Below are positions 10,340 to 63,248 of a stretch of 64,000 nt of DNA, in pieces (positions within the stretch are counted from its first letter, which is position 1; the number at the start of each line of letters is the position of its first letter). Under the pieces are notes generated by a model. It was not told where the DNA came from and ran no database searches. It saw nothing but the letters and a program-made list of their open reading frames with translations. Source of the stretch: Escherichia phage fjerdesal; the sequence record MN850605.1; one strand, 5' to 3'. The position numbers were made by a program, and so were the translations under genes.

Positions 10340-10415
10340 TGGAGAATCCGAAGGGACTCGAACCCTTATAAACCTGTTTTGCAGACAGGCACATATCCAT
10401 TTCTGTCACGGATTC
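10340..10415 (-). tRNA. tRNA-Cys (anticodon GCA)
   Basis: Perfect 7-bp acceptor stem, T-arm AAGGG/TTCGAGT/CCCTT, anticodon loop CTGCAAA, U73, encoded CCA. Confidence 0.75.
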
Positions 10416-10419
10416 AAAT

Positions 10420-10512
10420 TGGAGGAAGATACCAGACTTGAACTGGTACACCGATTTCTCAGCTACTGGCAGTTTAGCAAACTGCTCCCTTACCTTTTAG
10501 GGTTAATCTTCC
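10420..10512 (-). tRNA. tRNA-Ser (anticodon GCT), type II
   Basis: Acceptor GGAAGAT/ATCTTCC, anticodon stem GCAGT/ACTGC loop TTGCTAA, long variable arm, T-arm ACCAG/TTCAAGT/CTGGT. Confidence 0.7.
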
Positions 10513-10513
10513 A

Positions 10514-11248
10514 TTATTTCTGTAATGCGCTCTTCATTTCTGGTGTTGCAATAGTGTCAATCACACCAGTTTTACAAGCATCGTCAAACCAGTCTGGTAA
10601 GATACCTGCTAAGAACCCATTGATATTCGTTTTAAGGTACTCTGCAATAAGGGCAGCTTCTTCTTCAATCATCTGCACAACTTCATCTGCATAAGCTGTA
10701 ATCTTTGAAATACCTTCATTAATCTTACTGACAGCTTGGTTAGCTAAATCAGAAACAGTATCAAGACCCTTATCAATAGCATCTTGTAAGTCACTTAACA
10801 CACCATTAACACTATCTAGTGTACTGTTCATCATGTCAATAGCTTTTTGACCATACTCTGTAGCAACACCCATGATACCACTGAATGGTTTACAACCAAC
10901 TTGTTCTCCTGCTGCACCCATAACATTGGAATACCCCTTTGCTACCTGCATACGTGATGAAAACTCATCAATAGATTTTTGACCGTAGTCTGTCAGAGTT
11001 TTAGTAGTTGCTGTAGTGCTTGTAAGGCTTGTTGTAAAGCTGTTTAGAAGGACTGTTGTAAGTCCAGCAGCAACAAGTTTCTCCTTCATTGTAGGGTCTG
11101 TTACAGAACTAATAGAGCTTACAAGTGATGTAGAAGCAGCTACGGTTCCACCGAGAACTGCTGCACCAGTAATAAGCGGGTTAGAGAACCCTTTACCAGT
11201 TTTTAAGAGATTAAAAATCTCCTTACCTTGTTCTGTCATCTCTTTCAT
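10514..11248 (-). CDS. hypothetical protein (Ser/Thr-rich)
   Basis: ORF 10514..11311 in track; start trimmed to ATG at 11248 because upstream part overlaps tRNA-Phe; AGGTG SD. Confidence 0.5.
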   Translation of the reverse strand: MKEMTEQGKEIFNLLKTGKGFSNPLITGAAVLGGTVAASTSLVSSISSVTDPTMKEKLVAAGLTTVLLNSFTTSLTSTTATTKTLTDYGQKSIDEFSSRMQVAKGYSNVMGAAGEQVGCKPFSGIMGVATEYGQKAIDMMNSTLDSVNGVLSDLQDAIDKGLDTVSDLANQAVSKINEGISKITAYADEVVQMIEEEAALIAEYLKTNINGFLAGILPDWFDDACKTGVIDTIATPEMKSALQK

Positions 11249-11266
11249 TAAGCACCTTTGAAATTG

Positions 11267-11343
11267 GTAGTCCAGTGGGATTTGAACCCTCTTCTCATGT
11301 TTTTCAGACACGCGCTTTAACCATATAAGCTACTTGGACTATA
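11267..11343 (-). tRNA. tRNA-Phe (anticodon GAA)
   Basis: T-loop TTCAAAT, anticodon stem CGTGT/ACATG loop CTGAAAA, D-stem GCTT/AAGC; 5' region slightly noncanonical. Confidence 0.6.
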
Positions 11344-11348
11344 AATTG

Positions 11349-11424
11349 GGGTGACCTACGGGATTTGAACCCGTATAGACCATGTTCACAGCATGGGTCA
11401 TTACCGTTTATGATAAGGCCACAT
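11349..11424 (-). tRNA. tRNA-His (anticodon GTG)
   Basis: Acceptor GTGGCCT/AGGTCAC, anticodon stem CCATG/CATGG loop CTGTGAA, C73, encoded CCA. Confidence 0.7.
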
Positions 11425-11455
11425 TTAAGGACTCTCGCAAGAATCCTTAGAAGTG

Positions 11456-11531
11456 GCAGCGGCATAAGGATTTGAACCTTAATAGGACAGCTTCAGAGGC
11501 TGCTGCATTGCCAGTTATGCTATACCGCTAA
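11456..11531 (-). tRNA. tRNA-Gln (anticodon CTG)
   Basis: D-stem GCAT/ATGC, anticodon stem GCAGC/GCTGT loop CTCTGAA, T-arm TAAGG/TTCAAAT/CCTTA, G73. Confidence 0.7.
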
Positions 11532-11536
11532 ATTTG

Positions 11537-11615
11537 GTACTCCATATCGGATTCGAACCGATACATAACACAGATTTTAAGTCTGGCCTCTCTGCCAATT
11601 GGAGTAATGGAGCAT
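11537..11615 (-). tRNA. tRNA with anticodon TAA (Leu-type anticodon, short variable arm)
   Basis: Acceptor GCTCCAT/ATGGAGT, T-arm ATCGG/TTCGAAT/CCGAT, anticodon loop CTTAAAA, A73; only 76 nt plus CCA. Confidence 0.6.
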
Positions 11616-11617
11616 TG

Positions 11618-11693
11618 GCGGGGGATGTTGGAATTGAACCAACTTCTTCGATTTCAAAGACCGAGGTTTTAACCTTGTAAACTAATCCCCTTT
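11618..11693 (-). tRNA. tRNA-Gln (anticodon TTG)
   Basis: T-arm GTTGG/TTCAATT/CCAAC, anticodon stem TCGGT/ATCGA loop CTTTGAA, G73, A1-C72 mismatch. Confidence 0.6.
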
Positions 11694-11699
11694 AAATCT

Positions 11700-12257
11700 T
11701 TACTTTCTCAGTGGATGAATAAAGAATGCCAACATAACTCTTTCCCTTGAGAATGCTCTTTCTTCTGGGACAACACTTTTTAGTTTCCATCCAATATAAA
11801 TTCTCCAGTAAAATTGTTTACCAAAGATTTTAATTGATGGGATAAAAGCGAATAATCCCCAAGCATTACTGTTCCACATTAGGAGATAACCTGTCTGATT
11901 ATCTTCGGGGTCAGAACTTACGTTGATATTACCTTTCCACTTAGTAACATCTCTTACATCTCTTCCTAATACATGGTAAGAGAAGTTATAAGCTTTGTTT
12001 CTCCAGAGCCATCCGACTCTTTGCATGTAGACACCTAGTTTACCAATCCATCTAATATTAGCCCATCTTTTAACGTGACCTTCATCACCATCAATTGGGT
12101 TGTCATATGTCTCCATCCATCTGAACCCGAAAGGTAAGTGTCCTTTCTTCTCACTGTAGAATGGAACTACAAAAGGTGCTAAGATAACTGCTAAGATTGC
12201 TGCAAATGGCTCTAACAAAGCTAAGAAAATCCATGAAGCATACTTCAAATATCTCAT
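11700..12257 (-). CDS. hypothetical membrane protein embedded in tRNA cluster
   Basis: 185-aa ORF with hydrophobic N-terminal segments. Confidence 0.55.
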   Translation of the reverse strand: MRYLKYASWIFLALLEPFAAILAVILAPFVVPFYSEKKGHLPFGFRWMETYDNPIDGDEGHVKRWANIRWIGKLGVYMQRVGWLWRNKAYNFSYHVLGRDVRDVTKWKGNINVSSDPEDNQTGYLLMWNSNAWGLFAFIPSIKIFGKQFYWRIYIGWKLKSVVPEERAFSRERVMLAFFIHPLRK

Positions 12258-12276
12258 CTAAATAGCCTCTTTAAAT

Positions 12277-12352
12277 TGGCGCAGGATAAGGGATTCGAAC
12301 CCCTATTAACAGCTTCGTAGACTGTTGCTCTATCCATTTGAACTAATCCTGC
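12277..12352 (-). tRNA. tRNA-Arg (anticodon ACG)
   Basis: Perfect acceptor GCAGGAT/ATCCTGC, anticodon stem ACAGT/GCTGT loop CTACGAA, encoded CCA. Confidence 0.75.
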
Positions 12353-12357
12353 AAAAT

Positions 12358-12435
12358 TGGTGTTCCAAGACGGATTCGAACCGTCACTAATACAAGGTTT
12401 GAGCTTGCATCCTCTGCCAATTGGGATACTGGAAC
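12358..12435 (-). tRNA. tRNA with anticodon CAA (Leu-type anticodon, short variable arm)
   Basis: Acceptor GTTCCAG/TTGGAAC, T-arm GACGG/TTCGAAT/CCGTC, anticodon stem GCAAG/CTTGT loop CTCAAAC, A73. Confidence 0.6.
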
Positions 12436-12436
12436 A

Positions 12437-12511
12437 TGGTACTCACTAAAGGACTTGAACCTTTTTCTTCATCTTGTAAGGGTGATGTTTTACCATATAA
12501 ACTAAGCGAGT
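12437..12511 (-). tRNA. tRNA-Val (anticodon TAC)
   Basis: D-stem GTTT/AAAC, T-arm AAAGG/TTCAAGT/CCTTT, anticodon loop CTTACAA, A73. Confidence 0.7.
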
Positions 12512-12518
12512 ATGAAAG

Positions 12519-12607
12519 AGGTCTGAAGTTGTGCCGCTAACTCAACTTCGTGGAATTTGTTACGGTCTTCAGTTGACTCAAAGCGGTCTTTCACTTGACC
12601 TCTGAAT
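12519..12607 (-). ncRNA. structured non-tRNA spacer element (GAGGTC...GACCTC closing stem, internal GAAGACCG motifs)
   Basis: 89-bp gap in tRNA array; terminal inverted repeat and internal hairpin, no canonical T-loop. Confidence 0.3.
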
Positions 12608-12683
12608 TGGTGCTCCCACAAGGACTCGAACCCTGATAAGTTGCTTACAAGGCAACCATAATAACCAATTATACGATAGGAGC
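12608..12683 (-). tRNA. tRNA-Thr (anticodon TGT)
   Basis: Anticodon stem GTTGC/GCAAC loop CTTGTAA, T-arm CAGGG/TTCGAGT/CCTTG, encoded CCA. Confidence 0.75.
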
Positions 12684-12690
12684 ATTAATT

Positions 12691-12765
12691 TGGAGCATCC
12701 AGAGGGAATCGAACCCTCAACCTCAGTTTGGAAGACTGTAATTTTCCCGTTTAAACTATGGATGC
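12691..12765 (-). tRNA. tRNA-Gly (anticodon TCC)
   Basis: Acceptor GCATCCA/TGGATGC, T-arm GAGGG/TTCGATT/CCCTC, loop CTTCCAA, U73. Confidence 0.75.
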
Positions 12766-12771
12766 ACTAAT

Positions 12772-12846
12772 TGGTGGAGTCACTGAGAATTGAACTCAGT
12801 TCCCAAGTTTGCAAAACTCGAATTTTAACCATATAAACTATGACCC
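12772..12846 (-). tRNA. tRNA-Ala (anticodon TGC)
   Basis: Acceptor with G3-U70 wobble (Ala identity), anticodon loop TTTGCAA, T-arm CTGAG/TTCAATT/CTCAG. Confidence 0.75.
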
Positions 12847-12854
12847 CCATTGTT

Positions 12855-12930
12855 TGGTACAGGTGGAGGGAATTGAACCCATCGTCTTACTGATTAAGAG
12901 TCAGCCGCATAACCATTTTGCTACACCTGC
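12855..12930 (-). tRNA. tRNA-Lys (anticodon CTT)
   Basis: Acceptor GCAGGTG/CACCTGT, anticodon stem GCTGA/TCAGT loop CTCTTAA, T-loop TTCAATT. Confidence 0.65.
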
Positions 12931-12937
12931 ATTAATT

Positions 12938-13014
12938 TGGTACACCTAGAGAGATTCGAACTCACACTGAGCAGATTCTAAGTCTGCTGCCTCTACCAGT
13001 TGGGCTATAGGTGC
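12938..13014 (-). tRNA. tRNA with anticodon TAG (Leu-type anticodon, short variable arm)
   Basis: Canonical D-arm GCC/AACTGGTAGA/GGC, perfect anticodon stem GCAGA/TCTGC loop CTTAGAA, T-loop TTCGAAT, A73. Confidence 0.65.
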
Positions 13015-13020
13015 ATTAAA

Positions 13021-13101
13021 TCTTTTTAGAGAACTTCTAAGAACCTGAGCAACAAGGTTCCACAACAAGCGACTAATAACCTTAGAAGCCCTCTAAAAAG
13101 A
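13021..13101. repeat. long inverted repeat (about 20-bp arms, about 40-nt loop) in tRNA cluster
   Basis: tctttttagagaacttctaag ... cttagaagccctctaaaaaga are reverse complements. Confidence 0.5.
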
Positions 13102-13268
13102 CCTAAATAGGTCTTTGCATAGTCTTGTTTAATCCGGTGACTAGAACCTTTGGAGAGCTTGATATTATCTCTTCTCCGTGACACCTACTAGGTGCTTTGA
13201 CAGTGTACGACAATACACGAGGGATAAACCGACAATGCGAACAAGCATGGACGGAGTAAATCTTATTA

Positions 13269-13358
13269 GGCGGTAAGTAAAGGAGTCGAACCCTCACCGT
13301 ATCTCTACAGTGGCAACAGTTTTCAAGACTGTTTGGCTGCCATTAGCCGCTACCTACC
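13269..13358 (-). tRNA. tRNA-Ser (anticodon TGA), type II
   Basis: Acceptor GGTAGGT/ACTTACC, anticodon stem ACAGT/ACTGT loop CTTGAAA, long variable arm, G73. Confidence 0.7.
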
Positions 13359-13371
13359 CCTAATAAGACTT

Positions 13372-13454
13372 TGGCATGGGACGGAGGAGTTGAACCCCTT
13401 TGAAACGGTTTTGGAGGCCGTTGCTCATGCCTTAGAGTCTTAACATCGTCCCAT
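13372..13454 (-). tRNA. tRNA-like gene, possibly tRNA-Trp (anticodon CCA) with atypical D-arm
   Basis: Perfect acceptor ATGGGAC/GTCCCAT, G73, encoded CCA, T-loop TTCAACT; anticodon stem AACGG/CCGTT enclosing 9-nt loop CCTCCAAAA. Confidence 0.45.
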
Positions 13455-13596
13455 ATTATAATTCGAAGCTTACCCTGTTATCTCAACACTGTCAAGCTTC
13501 TTCTCAGATTATTTACATGTTCTGGAAAACATGAGATACAGACCACCTCCCTACAGGAAGACCCGCTAAGGCCGTCTAAGTAATCTGCTAACTATT

Positions 13597-13673
13597 TGGT
13601 ACACCCTACAGGATTCGAACCTGTAACTAACGATTTAGAAGACCGTTGCTCTATCCAATTGAACTAAGGGTGC
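13597..13673 (-). tRNA. tRNA-Arg (anticodon TCT)
   Basis: D-arm GTTC/AATTGGATA/GAGC, anticodon stem ACGGT/ATCGT loop CTTCTAA, T-arm ACAGG/TTCGAAT/CCTGT. Confidence 0.75.
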
Positions 13674-13875
13674 ATTATCTTTAAAGACTCTCTTAGAAAG
13701 CCCTTAAAGATGCCCACCTTATTAATCATACCGTGGGCGAGTACGCCAAATTCTTTGATGAGGGATTGGAAGACCTCACTGGTGTTTAGCCTATCAAGCT
13801 ACTGCCAGAAAAACATTGTCGTTTGCATTTATTTTAAATTTGCAAAATAGACGCTACGCAACGAAAACTAAGGTT

Positions 13876-13904
13876 ACTATAAAGTAGTCACATCTCAATG
13901 TCAA
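13876..13904 (-). promoter_or_regulatory. sigma70-type promoter inside tRNA cluster (TTGACA-N17-TATAGT)
   Basis: Minus-strand TTGACATTGAGATGTGACTACTTTATAGT; reads toward tRNA-Arg(TCT) sub-cluster. Confidence 0.55.
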
Positions 13905-13919
13905 CAACTTTATTGAAAT

Positions 13920-13995
13920 TGGTACTGGTAGGTGGAATCGAACCACCGATGTTCCCTTATCAGGGGAGTGTTATAACCTTCTTAACTATACCAGC
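13920..13995 (-). tRNA. tRNA-Ile (anticodon GAT)
   Basis: D-arm GTTA/AGAAGGTTA/TAAC, T-arm GGTGG/TTCGATT/CCACC, loop CTGATAA. Confidence 0.7.
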
Positions 13996-13996
13996 T

Positions 13997-14073
13997 TGGA
14001 GGTTCAGATGGGAATCGAACCCACATTCATAGGGCTTATGAGACCCTTGCATTACCTTATCTGCGACTGAACC
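13997..14073 (-). tRNA. tRNA-Met (anticodon CAT)
   Basis: Acceptor GGTTCAG/CTGAACC, anticodon stem AGGGT/GCCCT loop CTCATAA. Confidence 0.7.
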
Positions 14074-14077
14074 ATAT

Positions 14078-14153
14078 TGGTAGAAGTGGAGGGATTCGAA
14101 CCCATCGCCTGTCAGATTAAAAGTCTGCCGCATCACCATTCTGCTACACTTCC
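14078..14153 (-). tRNA. tRNA-Lys (anticodon TTT)
   Basis: Acceptor GGAAGTG/CACTTCT, loop CTTTTAA, T-loop TTCGAAT. Confidence 0.65.
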
Positions 14154-14163
14154 ATTAAATTAT

Positions 14164-14297
14164 CTTTGTAGATAAGCTACCCAGACTTGCTTAAGGTCTG
14201 TAGCGATGTGCCTTTTTTGGGTTTAAATCTAGAATTTACCCATTCACCCTTTGTGGTCGCATACTCACAAGTAAGCTTAATAACTTATCTACAAAGG
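14164..14297. repeat. 13-bp perfect inverted repeat (ctttgtagataag / cttatctacaaag) separated by about 108 bp
   Basis: Exact reverse-complement arms at 14164-14176 and 14285-14297. Confidence 0.5.
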
Positions 14298-14299
14298 TA

Positions 14300-14440
14300 A
14301 TTACCAGACCGTTGTTTATCATCTTAAGTGCTACCATTACACCAACTCGACATCTGCCGAGTGAAGGAATCGAACCTTCGCCTTTTCTTTACCGGAGAAA
14401 TAGATTGTTTAAGTTTTGCTGTAAACGGCCTTCTGTAAAT
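14300..14440 (-). ncRNA. candidate Y-RNA-like element containing a circularly permuted tRNA-like module
   Basis: Minus strand order: T-arm GAAGG/TTCGATT/CCTTC (14363-14379), closed acceptor-like hairpin ACTCGGC-AGAT-GTCGAGT (14345-14362), D-arm-like GTG/TAATGGTAG/CAC (14328-14343); flanked by AGGCCGTT / AACGGTCT complementary segments; no anticodon arm. Confidence 0.35.
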
Positions 14441-14586
14441 TTGTTGAGCCAGACCAAGTTTTAAATTTTCAAAATTAAATTGGCTTGAAAATATCATACG
14501 TTCTTGCTGAATTTGGTCTTCTGCTCCTTTAAAGAATACTCGTAAGAACTCTTTAAGGGAGGGGCTAAATAGCCCTCTCAAAATTG

Positions 14587-14661
14587 GCGGCTACGATGAG
14601 ACTTGAACTCACATCATCTCCCGTGACAGGGGAGTATTTTCTCCAGTTAAACTACATAGCC
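14587..14661 (-). tRNA. tRNA-Asp (anticodon GTC)
   Basis: Acceptor GGCTATG/CGTAGCC, perfect anticodon stem CTCCC/GGGAG loop CTGTCAC, G73, encoded CCA. Confidence 0.75.
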
Positions 14662-14666
14662 TTTAT

Positions 14667-14754
14667 TGGTGTGCCGTGTAGGAGTCGAACCTACCGAGTC
14701 TCAATGACAAGGGATTTACAGTCCCCACCGCTACCATCTACGGGATAACGACAC
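14667..14754 (-). tRNA. tRNA-Tyr (anticodon GTA), type II
   Basis: T-arm GTAGG/TTCGACT/CCTAC, anticodon loop CTGTAAA, long variable arm. Confidence 0.7.
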
Positions 14755-14762
14755 ATTTAATT

Positions 14763-14839
14763 TGGCGGTTAGTCAGGGATTCGAACCCTGTGCCATTCGC
14801 TTAACAGGCGACCGCACATACCTTATGTGCTTCCTAACC
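14763..14839 (-). tRNA. tRNA-Asn (anticodon GTT)
   Basis: T-arm CAGGG/TTCGAAT/CCCTG, anticodon loop CTGTTAA, G73. Confidence 0.65.
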
Positions 14840-14917
14840 TTAATACATTGCCAGACCGTGTTTTTTCTTTTATCCGCAAAAAAGTATTTTGTTGCTGAAT
14901 ACGGTCTTCTGCAAAAT

Positions 14918-14994
14918 TGGAGGCGGGTGCAGGAGTCGAACCTGCCGATACCATGCTAATGAGACATGTGAGACGCCCTTTCTCTATACCCGCA
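14918..14994 (-). tRNA. tRNA with anticodon CAT (Met or lysidine-type Ile2)
   Basis: T-arm GCAGG/TTCGACT/CCTGC, anticodon stem CATGT/GCATG loop CTCATTA. Confidence 0.6.
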
Positions 14995-15085
14995 ATTCTT
15001 AATGACCAGACCAAATCTCTTCTTTGTCCGATTTACCTTCAGATGAATAAGATTAAGTTTGCTGTAATTGGTCTTCTGTCAAAAC

Positions 15086-15163
15086 TGGCGTTCCAGAAGG
15101 GATTTGAACCCTCAGATATCCACTTTGAAAGAGTGGTGACTATACCATTTTGTCTACTGGAAC
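15086..15163 (-). tRNA. tRNA-Glu (anticodon TTC)
   Basis: Acceptor GTTCCAG/CTGGAAC, perfect anticodon stem CCACT/AGTGG loop CTTTCAA, G73. Confidence 0.75.
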
Positions 15164-15170
15164 ATTAATT

Positions 15171-15247
15171 TGGTCTCTGTTGGAGGACTTGAACCTCCGG
15201 CCTTACCGCCCCAAACGGAACGCTCTACCAATCTGAGCTAAACAGAG
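15171..15247 (-). tRNA. tRNA-Pro (anticodon TGG)
   Basis: Perfect acceptor CTCTGTT/AACAGAG, D-arm GCTC/AGATTGGTA/GAGC, loop TTTGGGG, T-arm GGAGG/TTCAAGT/CCTCC. Confidence 0.75.
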
Positions 15248-25186: not shown

Positions 25187-26744
25187 TTTTTATAAAATTT
25201 TATCGGTTGTCCCAACCTCTGGGTCACCATCATATGTGAATAAAATATCTATCCTTCTTAACAACCTTCTTAATCTTACTCTCTATATAGTTATATAGTA
25301 CTATATAGTATCTTAGTAACTATCTAGTGGTCTTAATAGCCCTCTGTATAGCCCTTCTAAATAGCCATCTAAACACTCTTCTAACAAGCCTTCTAAACAA
25401 CCTATACAATCATCTTAACCATCTCTCTATATCCTCTTAGAAGCTCCTATACACCTCTTAATCTCTAGGTTAGCTATGTTACTCTCTATAGGTGTTCACT
25501 AGGTACTACTAAGCCTCTATATAGACTGTTTTAACAAACTTAACAGGAATATCTTCACAGACCTTATCTCACAAGGTCTAACACGGTACTAACAAGGTAT
25601 CTTATAAGCCTGTTATTACCTGTATTTTTAAAAGGCTGTATAGGTAATTATTCAGAATCTTAAAATTTTTATAAAATAGGGCTATCAAGTCATTTTTTAG
25701 GGTCTTTGAAGGAACTGAAAAATATCTGATTAGGATGTATATCTGCTTGGTAGCCCTTAACAGCCCCTTAACACCCCCTTTGCAAAATTTTAAAATATCC
25801 TTAACAATCTCTTAACAGTTCTCACATCTTCTTAACAACCCTTCAAAGGTCTTAACAGATTCTTAACAGAACTAACAAGGCTGTAACAGTTTTCTAACAA
25901 GTGCTGAATAGGCTTTACAGAATCTTAACAGATGACTAACAAGAGCTAACAAGTTAATTTTAAAGAGTTATTTTGTTAAGATAATTAACAAGTTCCTAAC
26001 AAGTGTTTAATCTTTTTAACAAGCTATTAACATGGTCACTATCTCTTGGTCTATAGTTCCCTTTCCCTCTTAGTGATTCTTTAAACATACCTCTTAAAAG
26101 CTCTCTATAGCTCTTTATAAGCTCTTTTAAGTCTCTTCCTAGTAGTTACACCCCAACTATACAGAAAGCTTTTTATAGGGCTTTACAGGAGCTTTTAAGG
26201 CTATGTCAAAGGCTCTTACAAGGCTTTTACATGGTCTTAACAGAGATTTAACAAGGGGCTAACAAGTCTCTAACAAGTGCCTTAAAAGCATAACTATGTA
26301 GGGATTGTTAAGAAATTGTTAAGAAAATGTTAAGGGGGCTAGCATTTACGTAACTTTTAAGCTACTTTATATCCCCTATAACATACTTTTAAGACACTAA
26401 CAAGCCCTTTTTAGATATTCACAAGATAGCTAACGAGATGATAAAGCTTACACCCTTATAAGATTCTTTTAAGGCTGTAGGAAGCTTTATAAAGAGCTTT
26501 TAAGGGTGAGTTAATGCAATCCCTTAAGTTAGGTTGATAAGGCTGTTATAGAGCTTTATAGAGCGTTTAAACGGTTGCCCTTCCCTTTCGGGTTATGGGC
26601 TTTTATTTAAGTTGATTTGATAAGAGATTATAGAGTAGACTATAGAGTTATTGCTTTTAAGGTCTGGTAAGATTCTATCGAATCAGTAGGGTAGATTCTG
26701 GAAAGGAAAGGAAAGGGATTGTATAGAGGTTATTACATAGACGT
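25187..26744. repeat. 1.6-kb ORF-free motif-dense region (CTTAACAR / CTAACAAG array; GCTTTATAAAGAGCTTTTAAGG family)
   Basis: No ORF of 60 aa or more on any strand; many short direct repeats; lies between convergent plus- and minus-strand gene blocks. Confidence 0.6.
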
Positions 26745-28936: not shown

Positions 28937-29479
28937 TTAGAAAAAGCTCTTTAAATCTCTCTCTGTGATGTTTCCCGCTAGTGTATCCATGATGTCACAA
29001 AAAACCTGAATACTATCCGACTGTTGAATACTTTTAGCAAGAAGCTCCAGAGACTCATCAAGATAATTTAAATTTGGGTTATCCAATGAAGGAAGACAAA
29101 AAGGCGAAAACATCGCATTAAACTCGGTTACGTAAACCTTTTTAATCCAATTTAAATCGAAGTATTCTGTAAAACTTGCTACGCCAGACATATTATCACA
29201 AGAATAATCATCATTCAGGTCATCCTCTGGGATATCAAGTTCTAAGATAACAATATTTTGGGTTTTCATCTGGAAAGCGGCCGTAATAGTGGCATTACCT
29301 AACGCTTGCTGGATGCCTTCGGCTGTTATCTCTTCCTCATCGTCGCCATAGATTTTATTTTCTGGATACACGTAAAAATTGCCGTCCATGTCCGAACAAT
29401 TCCATGCACCTGATGGCTTGTCACCGTTATTAATCAGGTTGAGGAAATTTTCTTGAGTAGTACCGTGAAAGCATTTCAT
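28937..29479 (-). CDS. hypothetical early protein, possible ADP-ribosyltransferase fold (HGT motif)
   Basis: 180 aa; N-terminal FHGTTQENFLNLINNG resembles the H-G-[ST]...N...I...G NAD-binding motif of H-Y-E class ARTs (PARP/diphtheria-toxin/Tpt1-like), followed by GNFYVYPE; unverified. Confidence 0.5.
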   Translation of the reverse strand: MKCFHGTTQENFLNLINNGDKPSGAWNCSDMDGNFYVYPENKIYGDDEEEITAEGIQQALGNATITAAFQMKTQNIVILELDIPEDDLNDDYSCDNMSGVASFTEYFDLNWIKKVYVTEFNAMFSPFCLPSLDNPNLNYLDESLELLAKSIQQSDSIQVFCDIMDTLAGNITERDLKSFF

Positions 29480-29530
29480 TTTTGAATCTCCAGTTTAGGA
29501 TTTAGTGGTAAAGCTCTTTATCTGGGGCTT

Positions 29531-29559
29531 ACTTTATCGAACTATAAGCCCCTTGTAAA
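29531..29559 (-). promoter_or_regulatory. early promoter cassette type B (TTTACA-N17-TAAAGT) with GGGGCTTA/TAAGCCCC hairpin
   Basis: Near-identical cassette copies at about 30333, 31404 and 31751. Confidence 0.5.
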
Positions 29560-29564
29560 GTACT

Positions 29565-29768
29565 TTATTTGTTATTTTTTACTACTTTTAAAACCGCACG
29601 ATAGCCTAAGCAATAGGAATCACCGAAGAGCGACCGACCCATGAAGGAGTCCTCTGTAATATCTTTCGCCGTGACGGTTTTTTCTACGCCGTGAAAGAGA
29701 ACTACATCACCGACTTTAATATCTTTGATGTGTGTAGTTTCAATGGTTAAACCGTTAATAATAGCCAT
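29565..29768 (-). CDS. hypothetical early protein
   Basis: 67-aa ORF. Confidence 0.5.
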   Translation of the reverse strand: MAIINGLTIETTHIKDIKVGDVVLFHGVEKTVTAKDITEDSFMGRSLFGDSYCLGYRAVLKVVKNNK

Positions 29769-29831
29769 TTTTGAATCTCCAGTTTAGGACTTTATTTAGT
29801 GGGGAAGGTCATTCCCGCCCCGTTGATGTGT

Positions 29832-29860
29832 AATTTAATCTATCTGAAAACCAATGTCAA
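29832..29860 (-). promoter_or_regulatory. early promoter cassette type A (TTGACA-N17-TAAATT)
   Basis: Consensus -35; preceded on plus strand by T14 tract. Confidence 0.55.
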
Positions 29861-29875
29861 CAATTTTTTTTTTTT

Positions 29876-30280
29876 TTAGAGTTCTGCATAAATTGCATCA
29901 CAGATACCACGAAAATCATGATTTGTCAAATTACGTTGTAACCAAGTGGCGAAAAAGTCAGCGATTGCAAAGTTAGCGTCATACTCGACAGATAGCCACA
30001 CTTTAACAGCAAACCGAAACATTTTCAAATCAAGCTCTTTATTCATTACCTTAGATTTGCCTAACATGTCGGACATTTCATATTGTGCACCGTCTAGCGT
30101 GATACCTGCTGCAACGTCAGCCAATGAGTTTTTTACGTTTTCAACGTCTAAGATAACGCTTTGAATCTTCCCAATAATGTTGTGCAATGTTTCGTCCGGT
30201 GCTGATGACGTAATAACATTAATCCGGTTAACGGTCAAACGTGCTTTTAAGATTGATAACTCGCGATTATTAATAGCCAT
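29876..30280 (-). CDS. hypothetical early protein
   Basis: Track ORF 29876..30295 trimmed: upstream MENLK codons are part of conserved cassette; SD-positioned ATG gives MAINNRE... Confidence 0.5.
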   Translation of the reverse strand: MAINNRELSILKARLTVNRINVITSSAPDETLHNIIGKIQSVILDVENVKNSLADVAAGITLDGAQYEMSDMLGKSKVMNKELDLKMFRFAVKVWLSVEYDANFAIADFFATWLQRNLTNHDFRGICDAIYAEL

Positions 30281-30332
30281 TTTTAAGTTCTCCAATTTAG
30301 GATTTAGTGGTAAAGCTCTTTATCTGGGGCTT

Positions 30333-30361
30333 ACTTTATCGAACTATAAGCCCCTTGTAAA
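30333..30361 (-). promoter_or_regulatory. early promoter cassette type B (TTTACA-N17-TAAAGT)
   Basis: Cassette copy. Confidence 0.5.
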
Positions 30362-30366
30362 GTACT

Positions 30367-30639
30367 TTATACTAAATGCAGCTTTTTACCTTTTACTATG
30401 ATGTAACTCGATGCGCTATTGCTTTGCACATCCTGATAAATTCTGCGCAAACGGCCTTCGTAGTATACTTTCCAACTGGTTGGAATCTTTTTCCCGTATC
30501 CTGTAGCAGTTTTTTGTAGTCCTGCAAGTTGCCAATCTAAGATATGTTGTTCGGCTTGTAAATCCTCGAAGTGCATTACACCGTTCACATAGTGACGAAG
30601 GGTTACGTTTAAGGTGCGACCGTTGTTAGTAGTATACAT
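30367..30639 (-). CDS. hypothetical early protein
   Basis: 90-aa ORF. Confidence 0.5.
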   Translation of the reverse strand: MYTTNNGRTLNVTLRHYVNGVMHFEDLQAEQHILDWQLAGLQKTATGYGKKIPTSWKVYYEGRLRRIYQDVQSNSASSYIIVKGKKLHLV

Positions 30640-30701
30640 TTTGAATCTCCTAGTTTAAGGACTTTGTTTAGTGGGGAGGTCATTACCTCCCGTTGATTAG
30701 T

Positions 30702-30730
30702 AATTTACTTGTTTTAAAAACCAAAATCAA
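30702..30730 (-). promoter_or_regulatory. early promoter cassette type A (TTGATT-N17-TAAATT)
   Basis: Cassette copy. Confidence 0.5.
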
Positions 30731-31059
30731 GAGAAATTTTTTCGTTTGCTCAATTCTTGAACAATTACAGCGTAGTAGTCTTTTAAGTCACTGACATTTA
30801 AAGCATTTATCAGAGAATTATAATCATCGACTAACTGAAAATCATCTTTGAAAATGTCGCTGATTTGATAAGTTTTTGATTGAAATCTGAAGCTCATTTC
30901 TAACCGTTTTATTTGTTCATCACTTAAACGCTCCAGAAAGCTCATTACAAGGCTATTATTGACCTGTTGCGTGATTGCCTTATTTGCTAGATTATAGGCT
31001 TTATATGCCTTATATAGCGCGAAAATGGCAATGATTGCAGTGATACCAGTCATTAACAT
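30727..31059 (-). CDS. hypothetical membrane protein
   Basis: 110 aa with N-terminal TM segment. Confidence 0.5.
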   Translation of the reverse strand: MLMTGITAIIAIFALYKAYKAYNLANKAITQQVNNSLVMSFLERLSDEQIKRLEMSFRFQSKTYQISDIFKDDFQLVDDYNSLINALNVSDLKDYYAVIVQELSKRKNFS

Positions 31060-31349
31060 GGTGTTTCCTCTTTACGTGATACTTTGCCATTTACAGTTAT
31101 CTCATAAGAATCTAGTAAGTCACTTTTAGATTTTACTGGACTTTTAAAAGTATCATCATAAATATTTACTTGCAATACAGGTTTTTTATACTCCCTGCAA
31201 CTATTCCATAAACAAATCACTACACGACGGCCTTTTATTTTACCGTGCAACCATTCCATAACATCATGATTATTTCTTGATGTCTCGATAAAATCAATTT
31301 TGTTGAGTAACTTGCTTAGATTTTCACGAACTTTATTGGATAATTTCAT
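31053..31349 (-). CDS. hypothetical early protein
   Basis: 98-aa ORF. Confidence 0.5.
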   Translation of the reverse strand: MKLSNKVRENLSKLLNKIDFIETSRNNHDVMEWLHGKIKGRRVVICLWNSCREYKKPVLQVNIYDDTFKSPVKSKSDLLDSYEITVNGKVSRKEETPC

Positions 31350-31403
31350 TTTTGAGTCTCCTAGTTTAAGGGTTAATTTGATAAAGCTCTTTATCTGGGG
31401 CTT

Positions 31404-31432
31404 AAGATATCAACTTTTAAGCCCCTTGTAAA
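31404..31432 (-). promoter_or_regulatory. early promoter cassette type B variant (TTTACA-N17-TATCTT)
   Basis: Cassette copy. Confidence 0.45.
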
Positions 31433-31440
31433 GTACTTTA

Positions 31441-31698
31441 TCAGATTAAATTGCCAGTTAATGATAAGTGCATTTTGTAACCTTGTTTAGTGAATACGTT
31501 CACTTTACCGAGTGTTTTTACACCTTTAAAAAGGTTATTTGAACTGCGTTTTAAGGTTAAATGTTTATCAGCCTTCACGCCCCACCTTACATTAGATTGT
31601 TTTCCGTTGTCAACCACTTTCCCGCATAACTTTTTAGCCATAACGCGAGCGTCATCACGAGTTTTTGCAGCAATTACAACGTTTTTGATAATAGCCAT
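31441..31698 (-). CDS. hypothetical early basic protein
   Basis: Track ORF 31441..31713 trimmed to cassette-positioned ATG (MAIIKNV...). Confidence 0.5.
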   Translation of the reverse strand: MAIIKNVVIAAKTRDDARVMAKKLCGKVVDNGKQSNVRWGVKADKHLTLKRSSNNLFKGVKTLGKVNVFTKQGYKMHLSLTGNLI

Positions 31699-31750
31699 TT
31701 TTAAGTTCTCCAATTTAGGATTTAGTGGTAAAGCTCTTTATCTGGGGCTT

Positions 31751-31779
31751 ACTTTATCGAACTATAAGCCCCTTGTAAA
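31751..31779 (-). promoter_or_regulatory. early promoter cassette type B (TTTACA-N17-TAAAGT)
   Basis: Cassette copy. Confidence 0.5.
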
Positions 31780-31784
31780 GTACT

Positions 31785-32165
31785 TTATTTAATTTTGAAG
31801 ATAGTTACGTAACCATCACTACCGATTATTTGAGACACTCCAGCTTTTTCTACTTGATAGCCCATATTTTCAAGATGATAAACAGCATCATCATAACCAT
31901 ATGCGCCACCCTGATAACGTCTCTTATCGCATTTTATCAGGTTTTTACCACGTCCCGCAAGTGCATGCAAAATGGCTTTTTCACTTGAAAGAGTACCATC
32001 TAGCATTGTCGCCGTGTAATGGTTGATTTTATTCCCGTTAATATCATACTTGAAATTGAACGAGTGAACAACAATAACGTTACCTTTAAAATTCTCATCA
32101 AGTGACTTCTCCAGTACGCTACGAAAGTTGTCTTTGTTGATGAATTTAGGTGCACGATATTTCAT
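31785..32165 (-). CDS. hypothetical early protein (first gene of array)
   Basis: 126-aa ORF. Confidence 0.55.
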   Translation of the reverse strand: MKYRAPKFINKDNFRSVLEKSLDENFKGNVIVVHSFNFKYDINGNKINHYTATMLDGTLSSEKAILHALAGRGKNLIKCDKRRYQGGAYGYDDAVYHLENMGYQVEKAGVSQIIGSDGYVTIFKIK

Positions 32166-32214
32166 TTTTGAATCTCCTAGTTTAAGGACTTTAATTTTTG
32201 GGGTCCGGCATTTC

Positions 32215-32227
32215 CCCCCCCCCCCCG
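32215..32227. repeat. homopolymeric C13 (G13 on minus strand) in 5' leader hairpin position
   Basis: 13 consecutive C at 32215-32227, replacing the GGGGAGGG arm seen in other cassettes. Confidence 0.7.
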
Positions 32228-32236
32228 TTGATGCAA

Positions 32237-32265
32237 ATACTAGATAACCCCGTTCAAAGAGTCAA
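32237..32265 (-). promoter_or_regulatory. strong sigma70-type promoter (TTGACT-N17-TAGTAT) heading the early gene array
   Basis: Minus strand TTGACTCTTTGAACGGGGTTATCTAGTAT followed by CAACGGGG leader. Confidence 0.6.
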
Positions 32266-32385
32266 GAAAATTTTAAAAATATTTTTGGGAAAACTGTAAT
32301 GAAACGTGCGCACACGACTACCACAAAACAGAACACAAATCAAGAATTATTTTTCAATCCGCTACAAATTTTTCTCTTGACTTTT

Positions 32386-32416
32386 GGGGAGAGGGGGAGT
32401 AAGAGGGGGAGAGGGG
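32386..32416 (+). other. G-quadruplex-forming motif (G4-N3-G5-N7-G5-N3-G4)
   Basis: GGGGAGAGGGGGAGTAAGAGGGGGAGAGGGG on plus strand. Confidence 0.5.
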
Positions 32417-32440
32417 TTGGTCTGGCTCTCTATAAAAACC

Positions 32441-32624
32441 TACCTGCACAATTCTAAAATGATTTTTCTTGCCCGACCTGAGCGGGGTCTGCACGTTTTG
32501 AAAATGAAAAAGCTCTTTGGAGATTACCTGCACAGTTTGAAAATGAATTTTTCTCTTTGGAGTTCAAAATACTCTCTACAGATTTCTCTATAGAGATATA
32601 CCTGCACAATTCTGAAATGAAAAA
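32441..32624. promoter_or_regulatory. iteron-like direct repeats (TACCTGCACARTTYTRAAATGAA, 3 copies plus 1 degenerate)
   Basis: Copies at about 32441, 32488 (degenerate), 32524, 32598. Confidence 0.5.
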
Positions 32625-32693
32625 GCCCTCCTTACCTGAAAAATTTACCAGATAAGAAAGGCTTAGTCTATTGTGAATATCCTACGAAGTTTC

Positions 32694-33479
32694 TTAGTTC
32701 TTTGCGGCTAAGAAGGTAACTTCTGGCGAAGAGAAAACTGTCTCGATATCCTCATCAGTTCTTGCATAGATGTAAGTATCTGCATCACTGCCAAATGTTA
32801 CTGCAATCCTGTGATTGCTCTTCGACAGGTGGGTAACTAGAGCGTTACTTAGAGACATCTTTTCAACCGGAGGGTTACTTTGATGTATCTTACCTTTTCT
32901 TCGTCTGAAGAGGGTAACTGCATTATCCGTGAACACAACTACACCTGCGAAGTATTCTGGTTCACAGTAGTTCTTCCAACCTGAGCGTAACTTGTGGTAC
33001 ATCTCTCCTTCATAGACATATAGATAAACATCTACGCTCTTCATTACCTGATTGATGATAACTGTGACGGCTTGAGGGTCCAACCCACCGATACCTGCAC
33101 CAATCATAGGTAAACCAACTTTCTTCAACTGATTAACTTCACAGTATCTGTTAAGTTGCTTCAAAGATGACTCTAAAGCACTGTATCGGGCATCTTTACC
33201 AGTCTTAAGCTGAGTGTAAAGGTTAGCTATACGACCTTGTTTTAAACGTGCTACGGAGAAATTACCTAGTAAATTTTCACAGGGTTTGTGGCCTATACCA
33301 CCTGCATATAGATAAACTTCTGTATCGGTCTCATATGCTTCTGGGTAAAGTTTAGAAATCTTGTCAGCGATACCTGCACCCATTAAATTCATACAGTTGC
33401 AACCGTGACCAATGATGTCAAACTTACCTTTATCAAATGCAGCAAAGATGTCACCATTGATGATTTTTACAATACCCAT
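32694..33479 (-). CDS. macro-domain protein (ADP-ribose binding/processing) with C-terminal extension
   Basis: 261 aa; N-terminal INGDIFAA...FDIIGHGCNCMNLMGAGIADKI and VGLPMIGAGIGGL match macro-domain glycine-rich motifs. Confidence 0.6.
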   Translation of the reverse strand: MGIVKIINGDIFAAFDKGKFDIIGHGCNCMNLMGAGIADKISKLYPEAYETDTEVYLYAGGIGHKPCENLLGNFSVARLKQGRIANLYTQLKTGKDARYSALESSLKQLNRYCEVNQLKKVGLPMIGAGIGGLDPQAVTVIINQVMKSVDVYLYVYEGEMYHKLRSGWKNYCEPEYFAGVVVFTDNAVTLFRRRKGKIHQSNPPVEKMSLSNALVTHLSKSNHRIAVTFGSDADTYIYARTDEDIETVFSSPEVTFLAAKN

Positions 33480-33680
33480 TTAACATCTCTCCCAAGATTC
33501 TTTATCTTCTGAAGGTTTTACACGTTGCCCTTCATGGTCTACCCAGATGCACCCACAACCTTCACAGATTACTGGCATTGCATAACCAGCTTTAAAGTCA
33601 TCTTCAGTGATGAGACCTTTTAAGTCACCTGTATCACGTCCGAACATTTCGATAGAACAATCTTTGCAGAAGTCAGCCAT
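33480..33680 (-). CDS. hypothetical small Cys-rich (zinc-ribbon-like) protein
   Basis: CKDC...CEGCGC motifs; start chosen at internal ATG, uncertain (track ORF 33480..33758). Confidence 0.35.
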   Translation of the reverse strand: MADFCKDCSIEMFGRDTGDLKGLITEDDFKAGYAMPVICEGCGCIWVDHEGQRVKPSEDKESWERC

Positions 33681-33900
33681 TGATAATTGCCTCTTGAATG
33701 ATGATACCTTTACCACAACGACTTTTAAAGTCTTCCAATGGCTGGGAGATAAAGCCACGTAAGCAATAACTGAATGCTAATTTTTTCCTGTAGATTATCA
33801 CATCATTTGCTGTAAAAGGAATCACTTCATTTCTTCCAATGGATACTGCTGACCGGATAATTTTCCGTGTCTTTTTATCTCTGGCTAGTATTACTTTCAT
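33673..33900 (-). CDS. hypothetical protein
   Basis: 75-aa ORF. Confidence 0.4.
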   Translation of the reverse strand: MKVILARDKKTRKIIRSAVSIGRNEVIPFTANDVIIYRKKLAFSYCLRGFISQPLEDFKSRCGKGIIIQEAIING

Positions 33901-34240
33901 AGTTTACCTTCTCAGTTAGTTCATATAAATCAACATGCTCAATACTATCAATGTTGATACCAATCTTTTTGAAGCGTTCTATCACTTCGTTGTCAGTCAT
34001 CCATATCAGACACCAATGATTGTGGATGGATTCTTCAAGAAGGTCAACACAATCTTTAAAAGTTTTTGTATCACTTCTTGTTCCAACTACTGCGATTGTT
34101 CCATATAACCACTTACCATTACCATAAGTTACTTGTGCTACACCAACTTCTTTATCGTTCTCGTAGTAAACGGCTACAAAGTCTCTTCCATTAAGCTGCA
34201 TTTGTAAGTTCCTCTGTTGGTAATTCACCATTTTCAGCAA
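33875..34240 (-). CDS. hypothetical protein
   Basis: 121-aa ORF. Confidence 0.5.
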   Translation of the reverse strand: MLKMVNYQQRNLQMQLNGRDFVAVYYENDKEVGVAQVTYGNGKWLYGTIAVVGTRSDTKTFKDCVDLLEESIHNHWCLIWMTDNEVIERFKKIGINIDSIEHVDLYELTEKVNYESNTSQR

Positions 34241-35299: not shown

Positions 35300-35326
35300 A
35301 AAGGCTCCCGAAGGAGCCTGTATCTT
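35300..35326 (-). terminator. rho-independent terminator
   Basis: Minus strand GGCTCC-TTCG-GGAGCC hairpin followed by TTTTT. Confidence 0.55.
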
Positions 35327-37028: not shown

Positions 37029-37095
37029 TGGTTCTCCTGTTTAGTTTATCGTGACAACAATTATACAGCACTCTGCACAAAATACAAATAAAAAA

Positions 37096-37122
37096 GGCCG
37101 CCGAAGCAGCCTTTTAAGAAAT
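37096..37122 (-). terminator. putative rho-independent terminator after rIIB
   Basis: Minus strand GC-rich hairpin followed by TTTTTTT. Confidence 0.45.
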
Positions 37123-63072: not shown

Positions 63073-63248
63073 GTAAGCCTCTTTTAAGTAACTATTAAGT
63101 TTTAATCTTTTATCTTAACGTATTCTATACGTTATACTTTAAAGCTTTTTAAAAGCTATTAAATAATCTTTTAAGAGTTTTAAAGTATCTGTATAGTTAA
63201 ACTGTTAAGTAACCTTTTAAGTAAAACCCACTTCGCAAAGATTAACAC

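Follow-up and report, generated by a model that had tools for sequence, protein, structure and literature searches.

Short modules made up of a promoter and a stem-loop, the promoter-early stem-loop (PeSL) cassettes, are repeated between small early open reading frames (ORFs) in a plastic region of the genomes of T4-type phages (Arbiol 2010; Comeau 2014; PMC2839356, PMC4122927), and iteron origins of replication (λ ori, P1 oriR and those of iteron plasmids) contain three to five unique, non-coding, asymmetric repeats of ∼20 bp that all lie in the same orientation. The Felix O1-type phages are in wide use for typing of Salmonella and E. coli, for biocontrol and for therapy (Felix O1 itself has been used since 1943), and the Felix O1 genome paper states their mode of temporal transcription regulation to be unknown. 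We analyzed a 64,000-nucleotide stretch (the window) of the genome of Escherichia phage fjerdesal (MN850605.1), a Felix O1/wV8-like phage (Felixounavirus) of the myovirus type. Positions 32166-32693 of the window are a 528-bp gap separating two minus-strand genes, in which an earlier note, made from the sequence alone, had described an early promoter, a homopolymer, a G-quadruplex motif and direct repeats. All of these features were confirmed to be present, small corrections aside, and its interpretation as a whole is partly supported; the terminator in the gap, and the ORFs that annotators have called over the repeats, were absent from it. The strongest finding of the locus is the array of four repeats, R1 through R4, which by its conservation among related phages is clearly constrained, and which appears to be undescribed in the literature searched.

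The genes around the gap and the promoter within it are on the minus strand, and along the direction of transcription the order of elements is terminator, four bipartite repeats, C-rich mirror block, −35-like block, UP-element promoter and a stem-loop in the 5′ untranslated region (5′UTR). The promoter and stem-loop at the downstream end resemble the PeSL cassettes, since they too are short modules repeated between small early ORFs in a plastic region, but they belong to another phage subfamily and have other sequences, and the stem-loop (of the type called A below) lies in the 5′UTR after the promoter rather than in a terminator before it. The PeSLs have nothing like the R array upstream. The array in turn resembles the iterons in the number, common orientation and asymmetry of its repeats and in being unique and non-coding, and its bipartite cores suggest a binder that makes two contacts.

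The R1-R4 repeats and their conservation

Each repeat has a core of the form TCATTT-N7-GTGCAG on the minus strand. The R1 core (bp 32602-32620; the full unit is ∼32599-32625) comes directly after the U-tract of the terminator; the R2 (bp 32528-32546) and R3 (bp 32489-32507) cores are each preceded by an ACTCCAAAGAG block, which at R2 is invariant, and R3 has a degenerate 3′ flank, GTGCAGACCCC; R4 (bp 32444-32462) is again a strict copy. The sequence TACCTGCACARTTYTRAAATGA has three matches at no more than three mismatches (32441, 32525 and 32599), where 0.02 would be expected, and the fourth, degenerate copy is at 32489-32516, so that the start-to-start spacings are 45, 39 and 74 bp. The three to four direct repeats reported previously are thus three strict copies and one degenerate one, and a supposed fifth, "34-bp" copy (32632-32646) is the 3′ arm of the terminator hairpin. 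In a logo of 69 distinct copies the TCATTT and GTGCAG hexamers are invariant and the A/T-rich 7-nt spacer is variable; upstream of the core come a G and then A5 or CT4, and an invariant block, ACTCCAAAGRG, lies further upstream in R2, in R3 and, in the Moogle group, in R4. The repeat units are ∼40 bp long and are conserved across nearly their whole length.

A megablast search with bp 31700-33500 matched 235 phage records, nearly all of them Felix O1/wV8-like myoviruses with hosts among E. coli, Salmonella, Shigella and Citrobacter; the closest match is phage heid (96.8% identical). The earlier note had named loss of the repeats in relatives as one of the observations that would tell against it, and they are present in every relative examined, including phages of Citrobacter, Shigella and Erwinia, with order and spacing kept. 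The spacings are 73-77, 39-41 and 45 bp in Felixounavirus, SUSP2, phiSUSP1, Moogle and Sf13-type phages, and 37, 37 and 39 bp in Erwinia phage phiEa21-4, whose version of the motif is TTTTTCATTTT-N-TGTGCATAG, with a C-rich stretch after it. Phage fjerdesal shares 77-86% identity with the Moogle, phiSUSP1 and Sf13 groups over the intergenic DNA, as compared with 73-76% over the adjacent coding sequence, and the cores are intact in the Erwinia phages, in which the best match to the phosphatase encoded next to the array is 43.5% identical over 58% of its length. Conservation that equals or exceeds that of the adjacent coding sequence, together with survival of the cores in the Erwinia phages, points to purifying selection exerted by a very conserved partner.

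The array also seems to be confined to this locus and this group of phages. In the complete 88-kb genome of the relative Pr103Blw the four copies score 28-33 bits and the next best site 13.6 bits, while shuffled genomes reach 17.7 bits. Multi-copy matches in IMG/VR are confined to contigs of Ounavirinae size, E. coli genomes and plasmids gave no match to the array, and there were no comparable arrays beside the distant phosphatase homologs examined. That next best site is an R-like sequence, TTATTT-N7-GTGCAG, which follows the terminator after rIIB on the minus strand (bp 37055-37110) together with a perfect extended −10, TGTATAAT; at 13.6 bits it is not above the shuffled genomes. A dispersed promoter element was rejected as an identity for the repeats, since a position weight matrix scan of the genome gave no other significant site. 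They were likewise rejected as σ70 promoters, on the minus strand (the best is TTTTCA-17-TATATC) as well as on the plus strand, where the invariant AAAT supplies an NAAAAT −10 and both the −35 and the spacing fail in the enterobacterial phages; two of the four Erwinia-phage copies score 9-10/12 as plus-strand promoters, which is treated here as a by-product of AT-richness. When the consensus sequences of the DnaA, IHF, Fur, CRP, σ54 and boxA sites were compared by eye with the repeats, only the DnaA box came close, and only in the Erwinia phage.

Could the repeats be evolutionary debris, functionless leftovers of tandem duplication or cassette recombination that are kept alike by gene conversion? 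R1 does start within the U-tract of the terminator, and another terminator, at 35302, has the same TTTTTCATTT after it; moreover, the locus is recombinogenic, with two alleles of the mirror block, varied downstream genes, a 643-bp deletion in one relative and an upstream gene swap in phage ECML-1. This explanation is nevertheless improbable, as conservation across genera is at least that of the adjacent gene, the core positions do not vary among 69 distinct copies, unlike the 7-nt spacer between them, and copy number, order and spacing are kept in the Erwinia phages and, despite replacement of the upstream gene, in ECML-1. In the latter (bp 1835-2100 of the retrieved stretch) the phosphatase gene is swapped for a different gene with its own terminator, and this replacement terminator is still followed by an R1-like copy, R3 and R4, which suggests that the array travels with the downstream side of the locus.

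Small proteins have been annotated over the repeats in three genomes, namely the 54-aa gp13 of wV8, ORF14 of Felix O1 and, on the opposite strand, Pr103Blw_00144; in the equivalent gap, the wV8 annotation also has a Rho-independent terminator and a direct repeat, "DR_6". Most relatives do have open frames of 50-105 aa on both strands, and the distances between R2, R3 and R4, 39 and 45 bp, are multiples of three. It is scarcely credible, however, that such a protein accounts for the repeats: there is no Shine-Dalgarno sequence, start, frame and length vary among close relatives (the window has a 1-nt indel, R3 of wV8 a 2-nt deletion, and the Moogle group stop codons), the spacing in the Erwinia phage is 37 bp, and the gap is empty of annotation in most other GenBank records. 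These annotated ORFs are probably spurious.

Possible roles: boundary element, replication origin or non-coding RNA

The wV8 annotation served to orient the locus. Upstream of the gap lies a homolog of the wV8 gp12 phosphatase/macro-domain protein (bp 32694-33479, minus strand), and downstream, after the promoter cassette, a gp14-like gene (bp 31785-32165, minus strand). On the map of Pr103Blw, the array is 6.4 kb from the right physical end, where a long operon running from primase through rIIA/B to the phosphatase stops and a terminal cluster of small, individually promoted genes starts. By sequence and comparison, the region is the conserved non-coding boundary at which the long operon, with the phosphatase gene as its last, gives way to the terminal small early genes. 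The homolog of the 581-bp direct terminal repeat (DTR) of Pr103Blw, whose annotation derives from a PhageTerm prediction, occupies bp 25750-26339 of the window, ∼6 kb from the array, and DTRs of ∼600 bp have been demonstrated experimentally in UAB_Phi87; a packaging site or genome end within bp 32166-32693 was rejected on account of this distance. The DTR homolog, which represents the physical genome ends, is non-coding, contains 18 YTAACAR repeats in 605 bp (0.5 expected) and bears a C-rich sequence, CCCTTAACAGCCCCTTAACACCCCC, at its edge (bp 25754-25778).

R1-R4 are probably a protein-bound cis-element. Of the two roles proposed for them in the earlier note, that of a regulator-binding array is reasonable, at least as a cis-acting binding array, because the repeats are conserved in all relatives examined and are unique in the 88-kb genome, while that of a replication origin has found no specific support, there being no initiator-like gene adjacent and more easily melted DNA elsewhere. 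The position of the array on the genome map, at the junction of the long operon and the small-gene cluster, leads us to favor, tentatively and at somewhat less than even odds, an element that marks a boundary or sets timing over one that fires replication. In this scheme the terminator would stop transcription from upstream and the UP-element promoter would restart it downstream, on a transcript that would begin with a stem-loop and a mini-hairpin masking the Shine-Dalgarno sequence, as one copy of a repeated cassette. Between terminator and promoter, the four (ancestrally perhaps five) TCATTT-N7-GTGCAG copies, in the same orientation and in ∼40-bp units, would be bound, as DNA, by one highly conserved protein, either of the phage core or of the host, and the resulting multi-site complex would insulate or time transcription across the boundary. 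The G-rich/C-rich mirror block would be an optional accessory, acting as non-B DNA or as a C-rich stretch that loads Rho on read-through RNA, and might also be a hotspot for deletion and assembly breaks.

Several observations weigh against a boundary or timing element. No known operator or box matches the repeats convincingly. The ∼40-bp units are conserved almost throughout, which is unusual for simple operators, and a repeat acting at the RNA level would also fit. The region is transcribed: the Felix O1 "ORF14" amplicon was positive in reverse transcription polymerase chain reaction (RT-PCR), with its maximum at 25 min as compared with 5 min for both neighbors, although both primers were in one tube and the assay was probably not strand-specific, so that the signal fits read-through equally well. 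Finally, a distance of 180-400 bp separates the array from the promoter downstream, the remaining early cassettes are without such an array, and the strong terminator already gives insulation.

More broadly, it is conceivable, if doubtful, that the array is the missing cis-acting hub of the Ounavirinae, whether as an origin, as a docking site for an early-to-middle switch, or as a boundary like the T5 injection-stop region, 6 kb from the genome end. As a single-locus array that is more constrained than the genes around it, it offers a concrete, testable handle on transcription timing and the origin in Felix O1-type phages.

A replication origin, in which the repeats would be iterons for a phage initiator or for DnaA and the promoters and G-rich block would open the DNA or prime synthesis through an R-loop or G-quadruplex (G4), is unlikely. 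The array is unique in the genome, has at least three direct repeats in conserved spacing, and adjoins strong predicted promoters and the strongest G4 motif in the window; no origin is known for the subfamily, and the Felix O1 genome paper names none. The plus-strand core TGCACA is the 3′ two-thirds of the DnaA box, TTATNCACA, and the Erwinia-phage copies, CTATGCACA or TTATGCACG, agree with that consensus at eight of nine positions. On the other hand, the E. coli-phage copies, ACCTGCACA, agree with it at only five of the eight specified positions, and the specificity of DnaA should match in both hosts; the other invariant half of the repeat, AAATGA, is foreign to the DnaA box. No initiator-like gene overlaps or adjoins the array (the flanking proteins are the phosphatase and members of PHROG families of unknown function), and the downstream neighbor varies among relatives. 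Classic iterons are phased at 11 or 22 bp, unlike these units with their spacing of 37-45 bp, and in 12 of 19 Felixounavirus loci another sequence takes the place of the G4 block. Nor does an AT-rich unwinding element stand out: the conserved AT-rich stretch of the gap is the UP element abutting the −35, and the best 50-bp window in the region, which coincides with it, is at the 98.6th percentile, while the least stable DNA of the window is at 25.2-25.7 kb (beside the DTR) and 63.1 kb (the divergent polymerase/primase region). These least stable stretches, bp 25269-25318 and 63084-63183, are the most AT-rich and are partly palindromic, and strand bias flips at the latter; by the criterion of unwinding they are better origin candidates than the array. 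A literature search on the transcriptomics and the origin of these phages gave nothing relevant, and the PhageMaP data for phage Bas63 are scored by gene, with no values for intergenic DNA.

A further candidate is an RNA read from the plus strand. The block between the mirror block and the early promoter (AAAAGTCAAGAGAAAAATTTGTAGCGGATTGAAAA, also given as AAAAGTCAAGAGAAAAATTTGTAGCGG, both in the minus-strand reading; bp 32351-32385) is nearly invariant across the enterobacterial relatives and contains TTGACT on the plus strand (bp 32377-32382), a possible antisense −35, from which a ∼250-nt RNA might run through a G-rich leader and four 39-45-nt repeats to end at the terminator hairpin. That such a non-coding RNA exists is quite unlikely, and a role for it as a decoy or sponge, like the type III antitoxin repeats or the phiTE pseudo-ToxI, or as an antisense regulator, is equally so. 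The plus-strand TTGAC and its A/T-rich upstream flank are invariant even beside the swapped mirror block, phiEa21-4 has a 10/12 plus-strand promoter (TTGACG-N18-TATACT) upstream of the repeats in the equivalent gap, whole ∼40-nt units are conserved, and the RT-PCR product has kinetics unlike those of its neighbors. The plan also resembles type III antitoxin loci such as ToxI and phiTE pseudo-ToxI, with tandem non-coding repeats of 36-45 nt in a lytic phage, flanked on the plus strand by a candidate promoter and a hairpin in the order promoter, repeats, hairpin. Against this, the candidate −10 sequences near bp 32377-32382 are poor (TAAGAG, which has no final T, or TAGCCT) and all of them fail the scan, no U-tract follows the hairpin on the plus strand, and there is no toxin gene nearby. 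The spacing is irregular, at 45, 39 and 74 bp (the last between R1 and R2); in phiEa21-4, where the plus-strand promoter is good rather than weak, it is 37, 37 and 39 bp.

Searches for conserved RNA structure bear on the same question. A scan of bp 31000-34000 against Rfam (E ≤ 10) gave no family within 32166-32693, and mutual information among the 69 unit copies gave no Watson-Crick covariation within units. RNAalifold on an alignment of nine genomes gave no compensatory support beyond the terminator on either strand (covariation ∼0 on the minus and −1.8 kcal/mol on the plus strand); the few compensated pairs in the alignment are all outside the repeat cores, and a predicted long-range pairing of the G-rich block with the terminator arm has wobble changes only.

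Terminator, mirror block and early promoter

By prediction, the phosphatase operon ends in an ordinary strong intrinsic terminator that should stop upstream transcription. This Rho-independent terminator (AAGCCTTTCTTATCTGG-loop-CAGGTAAGGAGGGCTT, followed by TTTTTC; bp 32623-32664, minus strand) was found by scan, has 17 pairs, and folds at −23.6 kcal/mol (z = −6.7). The 5′ arm differs among five lineage variants, each of which still forms a hairpin with a U-tract (U5-6) after it, so the structure is kept despite sequence change, and a terminator is annotated here in wV8, KhF2 and ASO1A.

Downstream of R4 the plus strand is G-rich, and the mRNA-sense strand correspondingly C-rich (GGGGAGAGGGGGAGTAAGAGGGGGAGAGGGG; bp 32386-32416). 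The G4 motif lies exactly where it had been placed and is the sole motif of four runs of at least three G in the window; its four G4-5 runs are separated by loops of 3, 7 and 3 nt, within the limit of 7 nt, and its G4Hunter score of 2.36-2.45 is the highest in the 64 kb. The block is also a largely purine mirror repeat with one T off-center, and its symmetry at 29 of 31 positions makes it an H-DNA candidate. It belongs to allele 1 of a replaceable segment of ∼55 bp (∼32386-32440), which is present in the window, in seven other Felixounavirus loci and in all SUSP2, Moogle, Sf13 and phiSUSP1-type loci; allele 2, an unrelated sequence, replaces the G-rich block in the 12 Felixounavirus loci mentioned above. 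The G-runs are kept in wV8, HY02 and SUSP2 and in the Moogle, Sf13 and phiSUSP1 groups (scores 1.9-2.4), while phiEa21-4 has only three runs. This two-allele distribution suggests that the G4 motif, although old, can be dispensed with. In read-through RNA, the block would appear as a C-rich 31-mer lacking G, which might load Rho or act as a mimic of an anti-Shine-Dalgarno sequence.

Four G4-5 runs, near-perfect symmetry, and breaks of contigs and records are what the block shares with known G-quadruplex and H-DNA-forming mirror repeats, from which its dispensability in many relatives sets it apart; it is a place of both assembly breaks and deletion ends. Two IMG/VR contigs end inside the C-rich motif (...CTCTTACTCC), in one of them with a Nextera adapter directly after it, and phage Andreotti has a GenBank record that starts immediately beyond the motif, with a foldback (inverted-repeat) artefact. 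These breaks fit trouble of the polymerase or of assembly at a structured G-rich tract and are not evidence of a biological end. Another contig turns into E. coli-like DNA after GACCCCGCTCAGGTCGGGG (∼4040). In the LF110P2 variant (OZ035782, ∼1490-1510 of the retrieved stretch), a 643-bp deletion relative to the sibling record OZ035766 joins the C-rich block (...ACTCCCCCTC) to AGATAAAGAG, in the 3′ part of a type-B cassette, through a CCCC microhomology, and removes the early promoter and the downstream gene or genes. The promoter-proximal cassette and what follows it are thus dispensable in at least one recovered phage genome.

About 350 bp past the terminator, a strong predicted σ70 promoter with an UP element would restart transcription. 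The promoter, TTGACT-N17-TAGTAT (bp 32237-32265, minus strand; −35 at 32265-32260 and −10 at 32242-32237), belongs to a type-A cassette and was found by scan; it had been called a consensus promoter, which overstates its 9/12 match. Its hexamers are within the 16-18 bp spacing of σ70 promoters, and the UP position is A/T-rich. It is conserved in all complete relatives, and ASO1A has a promoter annotated there. The UP element, CCAAAAATATTTTTAAAATTTT (bp 32267-32288, minus strand), abuts the −35 at about −59 to −38, and its core, AAAAATATTTTTAAAA, is invariant or one base different across all complete relatives and across genera. It matches, as judged by eye, the UP consensus, NNAAAWWTWTTTTNNNAAANNN, and the predicted arrangement of A/T tract and hexamers is like that of the rrnB P1-type UP promoters. 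A second, distal promoter-like element, TTGATT-N17(TG)-TAGTCG (bp 32315-32343, minus strand), was seen in the alignment and fails the scan criteria; it is doubtful as a promoter, because its −10-like TAGTCG ends in G in all relatives.

The C13 tract and the repeated early cassettes

The 5′UTR begins with ATCAAC + G13 + AAATGCCGGA + CCCC (bp 32200-32232, minus strand), in which the G13 is at 32226-32214 and reads as C13 on the plus strand; the 13-nt tract is therefore as described before, with coordinates 32214-32226 in place of 32215-32227. It is the sole run of at least seven C or G in the 64 kb, and C8 occurs six times against 0.21 expected. As had been proposed, it occupies the position of a hairpin arm: in the other two type-A cassettes (upstream of 30639 and of 29768) this position is taken by the 5′ arm of the hairpins GGGAGGT..ACCTCCC and GGGGCGGG..CCTTCCCC. 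In relatives, the leader at the present locus is a clean hairpin, GGGGAGGG-AATGA-CCTTCCCC (as RNA, GGGGAGGG-AAUGA-CCUUCCCC), with compensated variants in several lineages (GGGAGGU/ACCUCCC, GGGGUAAGCAAGCCCC and CGGGCAAGCCAGCCC). Leaders of normal cassettes have folding energies between −16 and −20 kcal/mol (z = −2.1 to −2.8), whereas the G13 version folds no better than shuffled sequences (z = +0.41), so that in this strain the predicted hairpin is abolished, not tuned.

The G13 patch amounts to ∼8 clustered differences over 25 nt and has no match among 50,697 GenBank phage records; over 211 bp the closest of them, phage heid (with G9), is 92% identical, while the flanks are 95-97% identical. 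An IMG/VR search for versions of the UTR with at least nine G gave only unrelated sequences. CATCAAC + G9-11 does recur in GC-rich viral contigs, in apparently homologous coding regions (...QHINGGG...) that are unrelated to this tract. The G13 is either a strain-specific degraded hairpin arm, a slippage-prone derivative, or a homopolymer-associated sequencing error. That it is a contingency switch, by which slipped-strand variation would alter early expression, as the earlier note had suggested, is very improbable. A homopolymer run of 13 is long enough to slip, and the arm drifts in length among related cassettes, reading G4AG3, G9 (heid and one KhF2 cassette) or G13. However, the tract begins 10 nt downstream of the −10 hexamer and lies in the 5′UTR (∼+7 to +19), outside both the promoter spacer and the ORF, so changes in its length would affect neither promoter spacing nor reading frame; the clustered-difference patch has no counterpart and is also the pattern of homopolymer-associated sequencing error; and LF110P2 lost the whole cassette with the downstream gene or genes and was still recovered as a phage genome.

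A stem-loop near the 5′ end of the transcript recalls the ompA-type stabilizing stem-loops. Unlike those, it may here be preceded by ∼6 unpaired nt, more than is thought optimal for stem-loop protection, and it is degraded in this strain. The leader ends with GTCCTTAAACTAGGAGATTCAAAAATG (bp 32163-32189, minus strand), in which, by folding and comparison of cassettes, the Shine-Dalgarno sequence is partly paired with an upstream GTCC(U) and is followed by the start codon of the gp14-like gene; GTCC(U) pairs with the Shine-Dalgarno AGGA(G) in all cassettes.

The stretch from 29477 to 32265 contains seven such promoter/stem-loop cassettes, three of type A and four of type B; the type-B hairpin, GGGGCTTA..TAAGCCCC, extends over the promoter spacer and the −10. 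The DR features of wV8 are the counterparts of these cassettes, as are the 39- and 57-bp repeats that the Felix O1 genome paper lists. As in the PeSL regions, the cassettes are near-identical modules between small ORFs, and gene content changes at their boundaries: indels and gene swaps are bounded by cassettes, three different genes with unrelated N-termini follow the same promoter cassette in different relatives, and the LF110P2 deletion has one end in the C-rich block and the other in a type-B cassette. The promoter/stem-loop part of the locus is thus an ordinary, known kind of phage early cassette with a strain-specific defect. Another type-A cassette has a T14 run (A14 on the gene strand; bp 29864-29877) directly upstream of its TTGACA −35, at the position of an UP element. 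Elsewhere in the window, a cluster of 26 tRNA genes lies at bp 10340-15247 on the minus strand.

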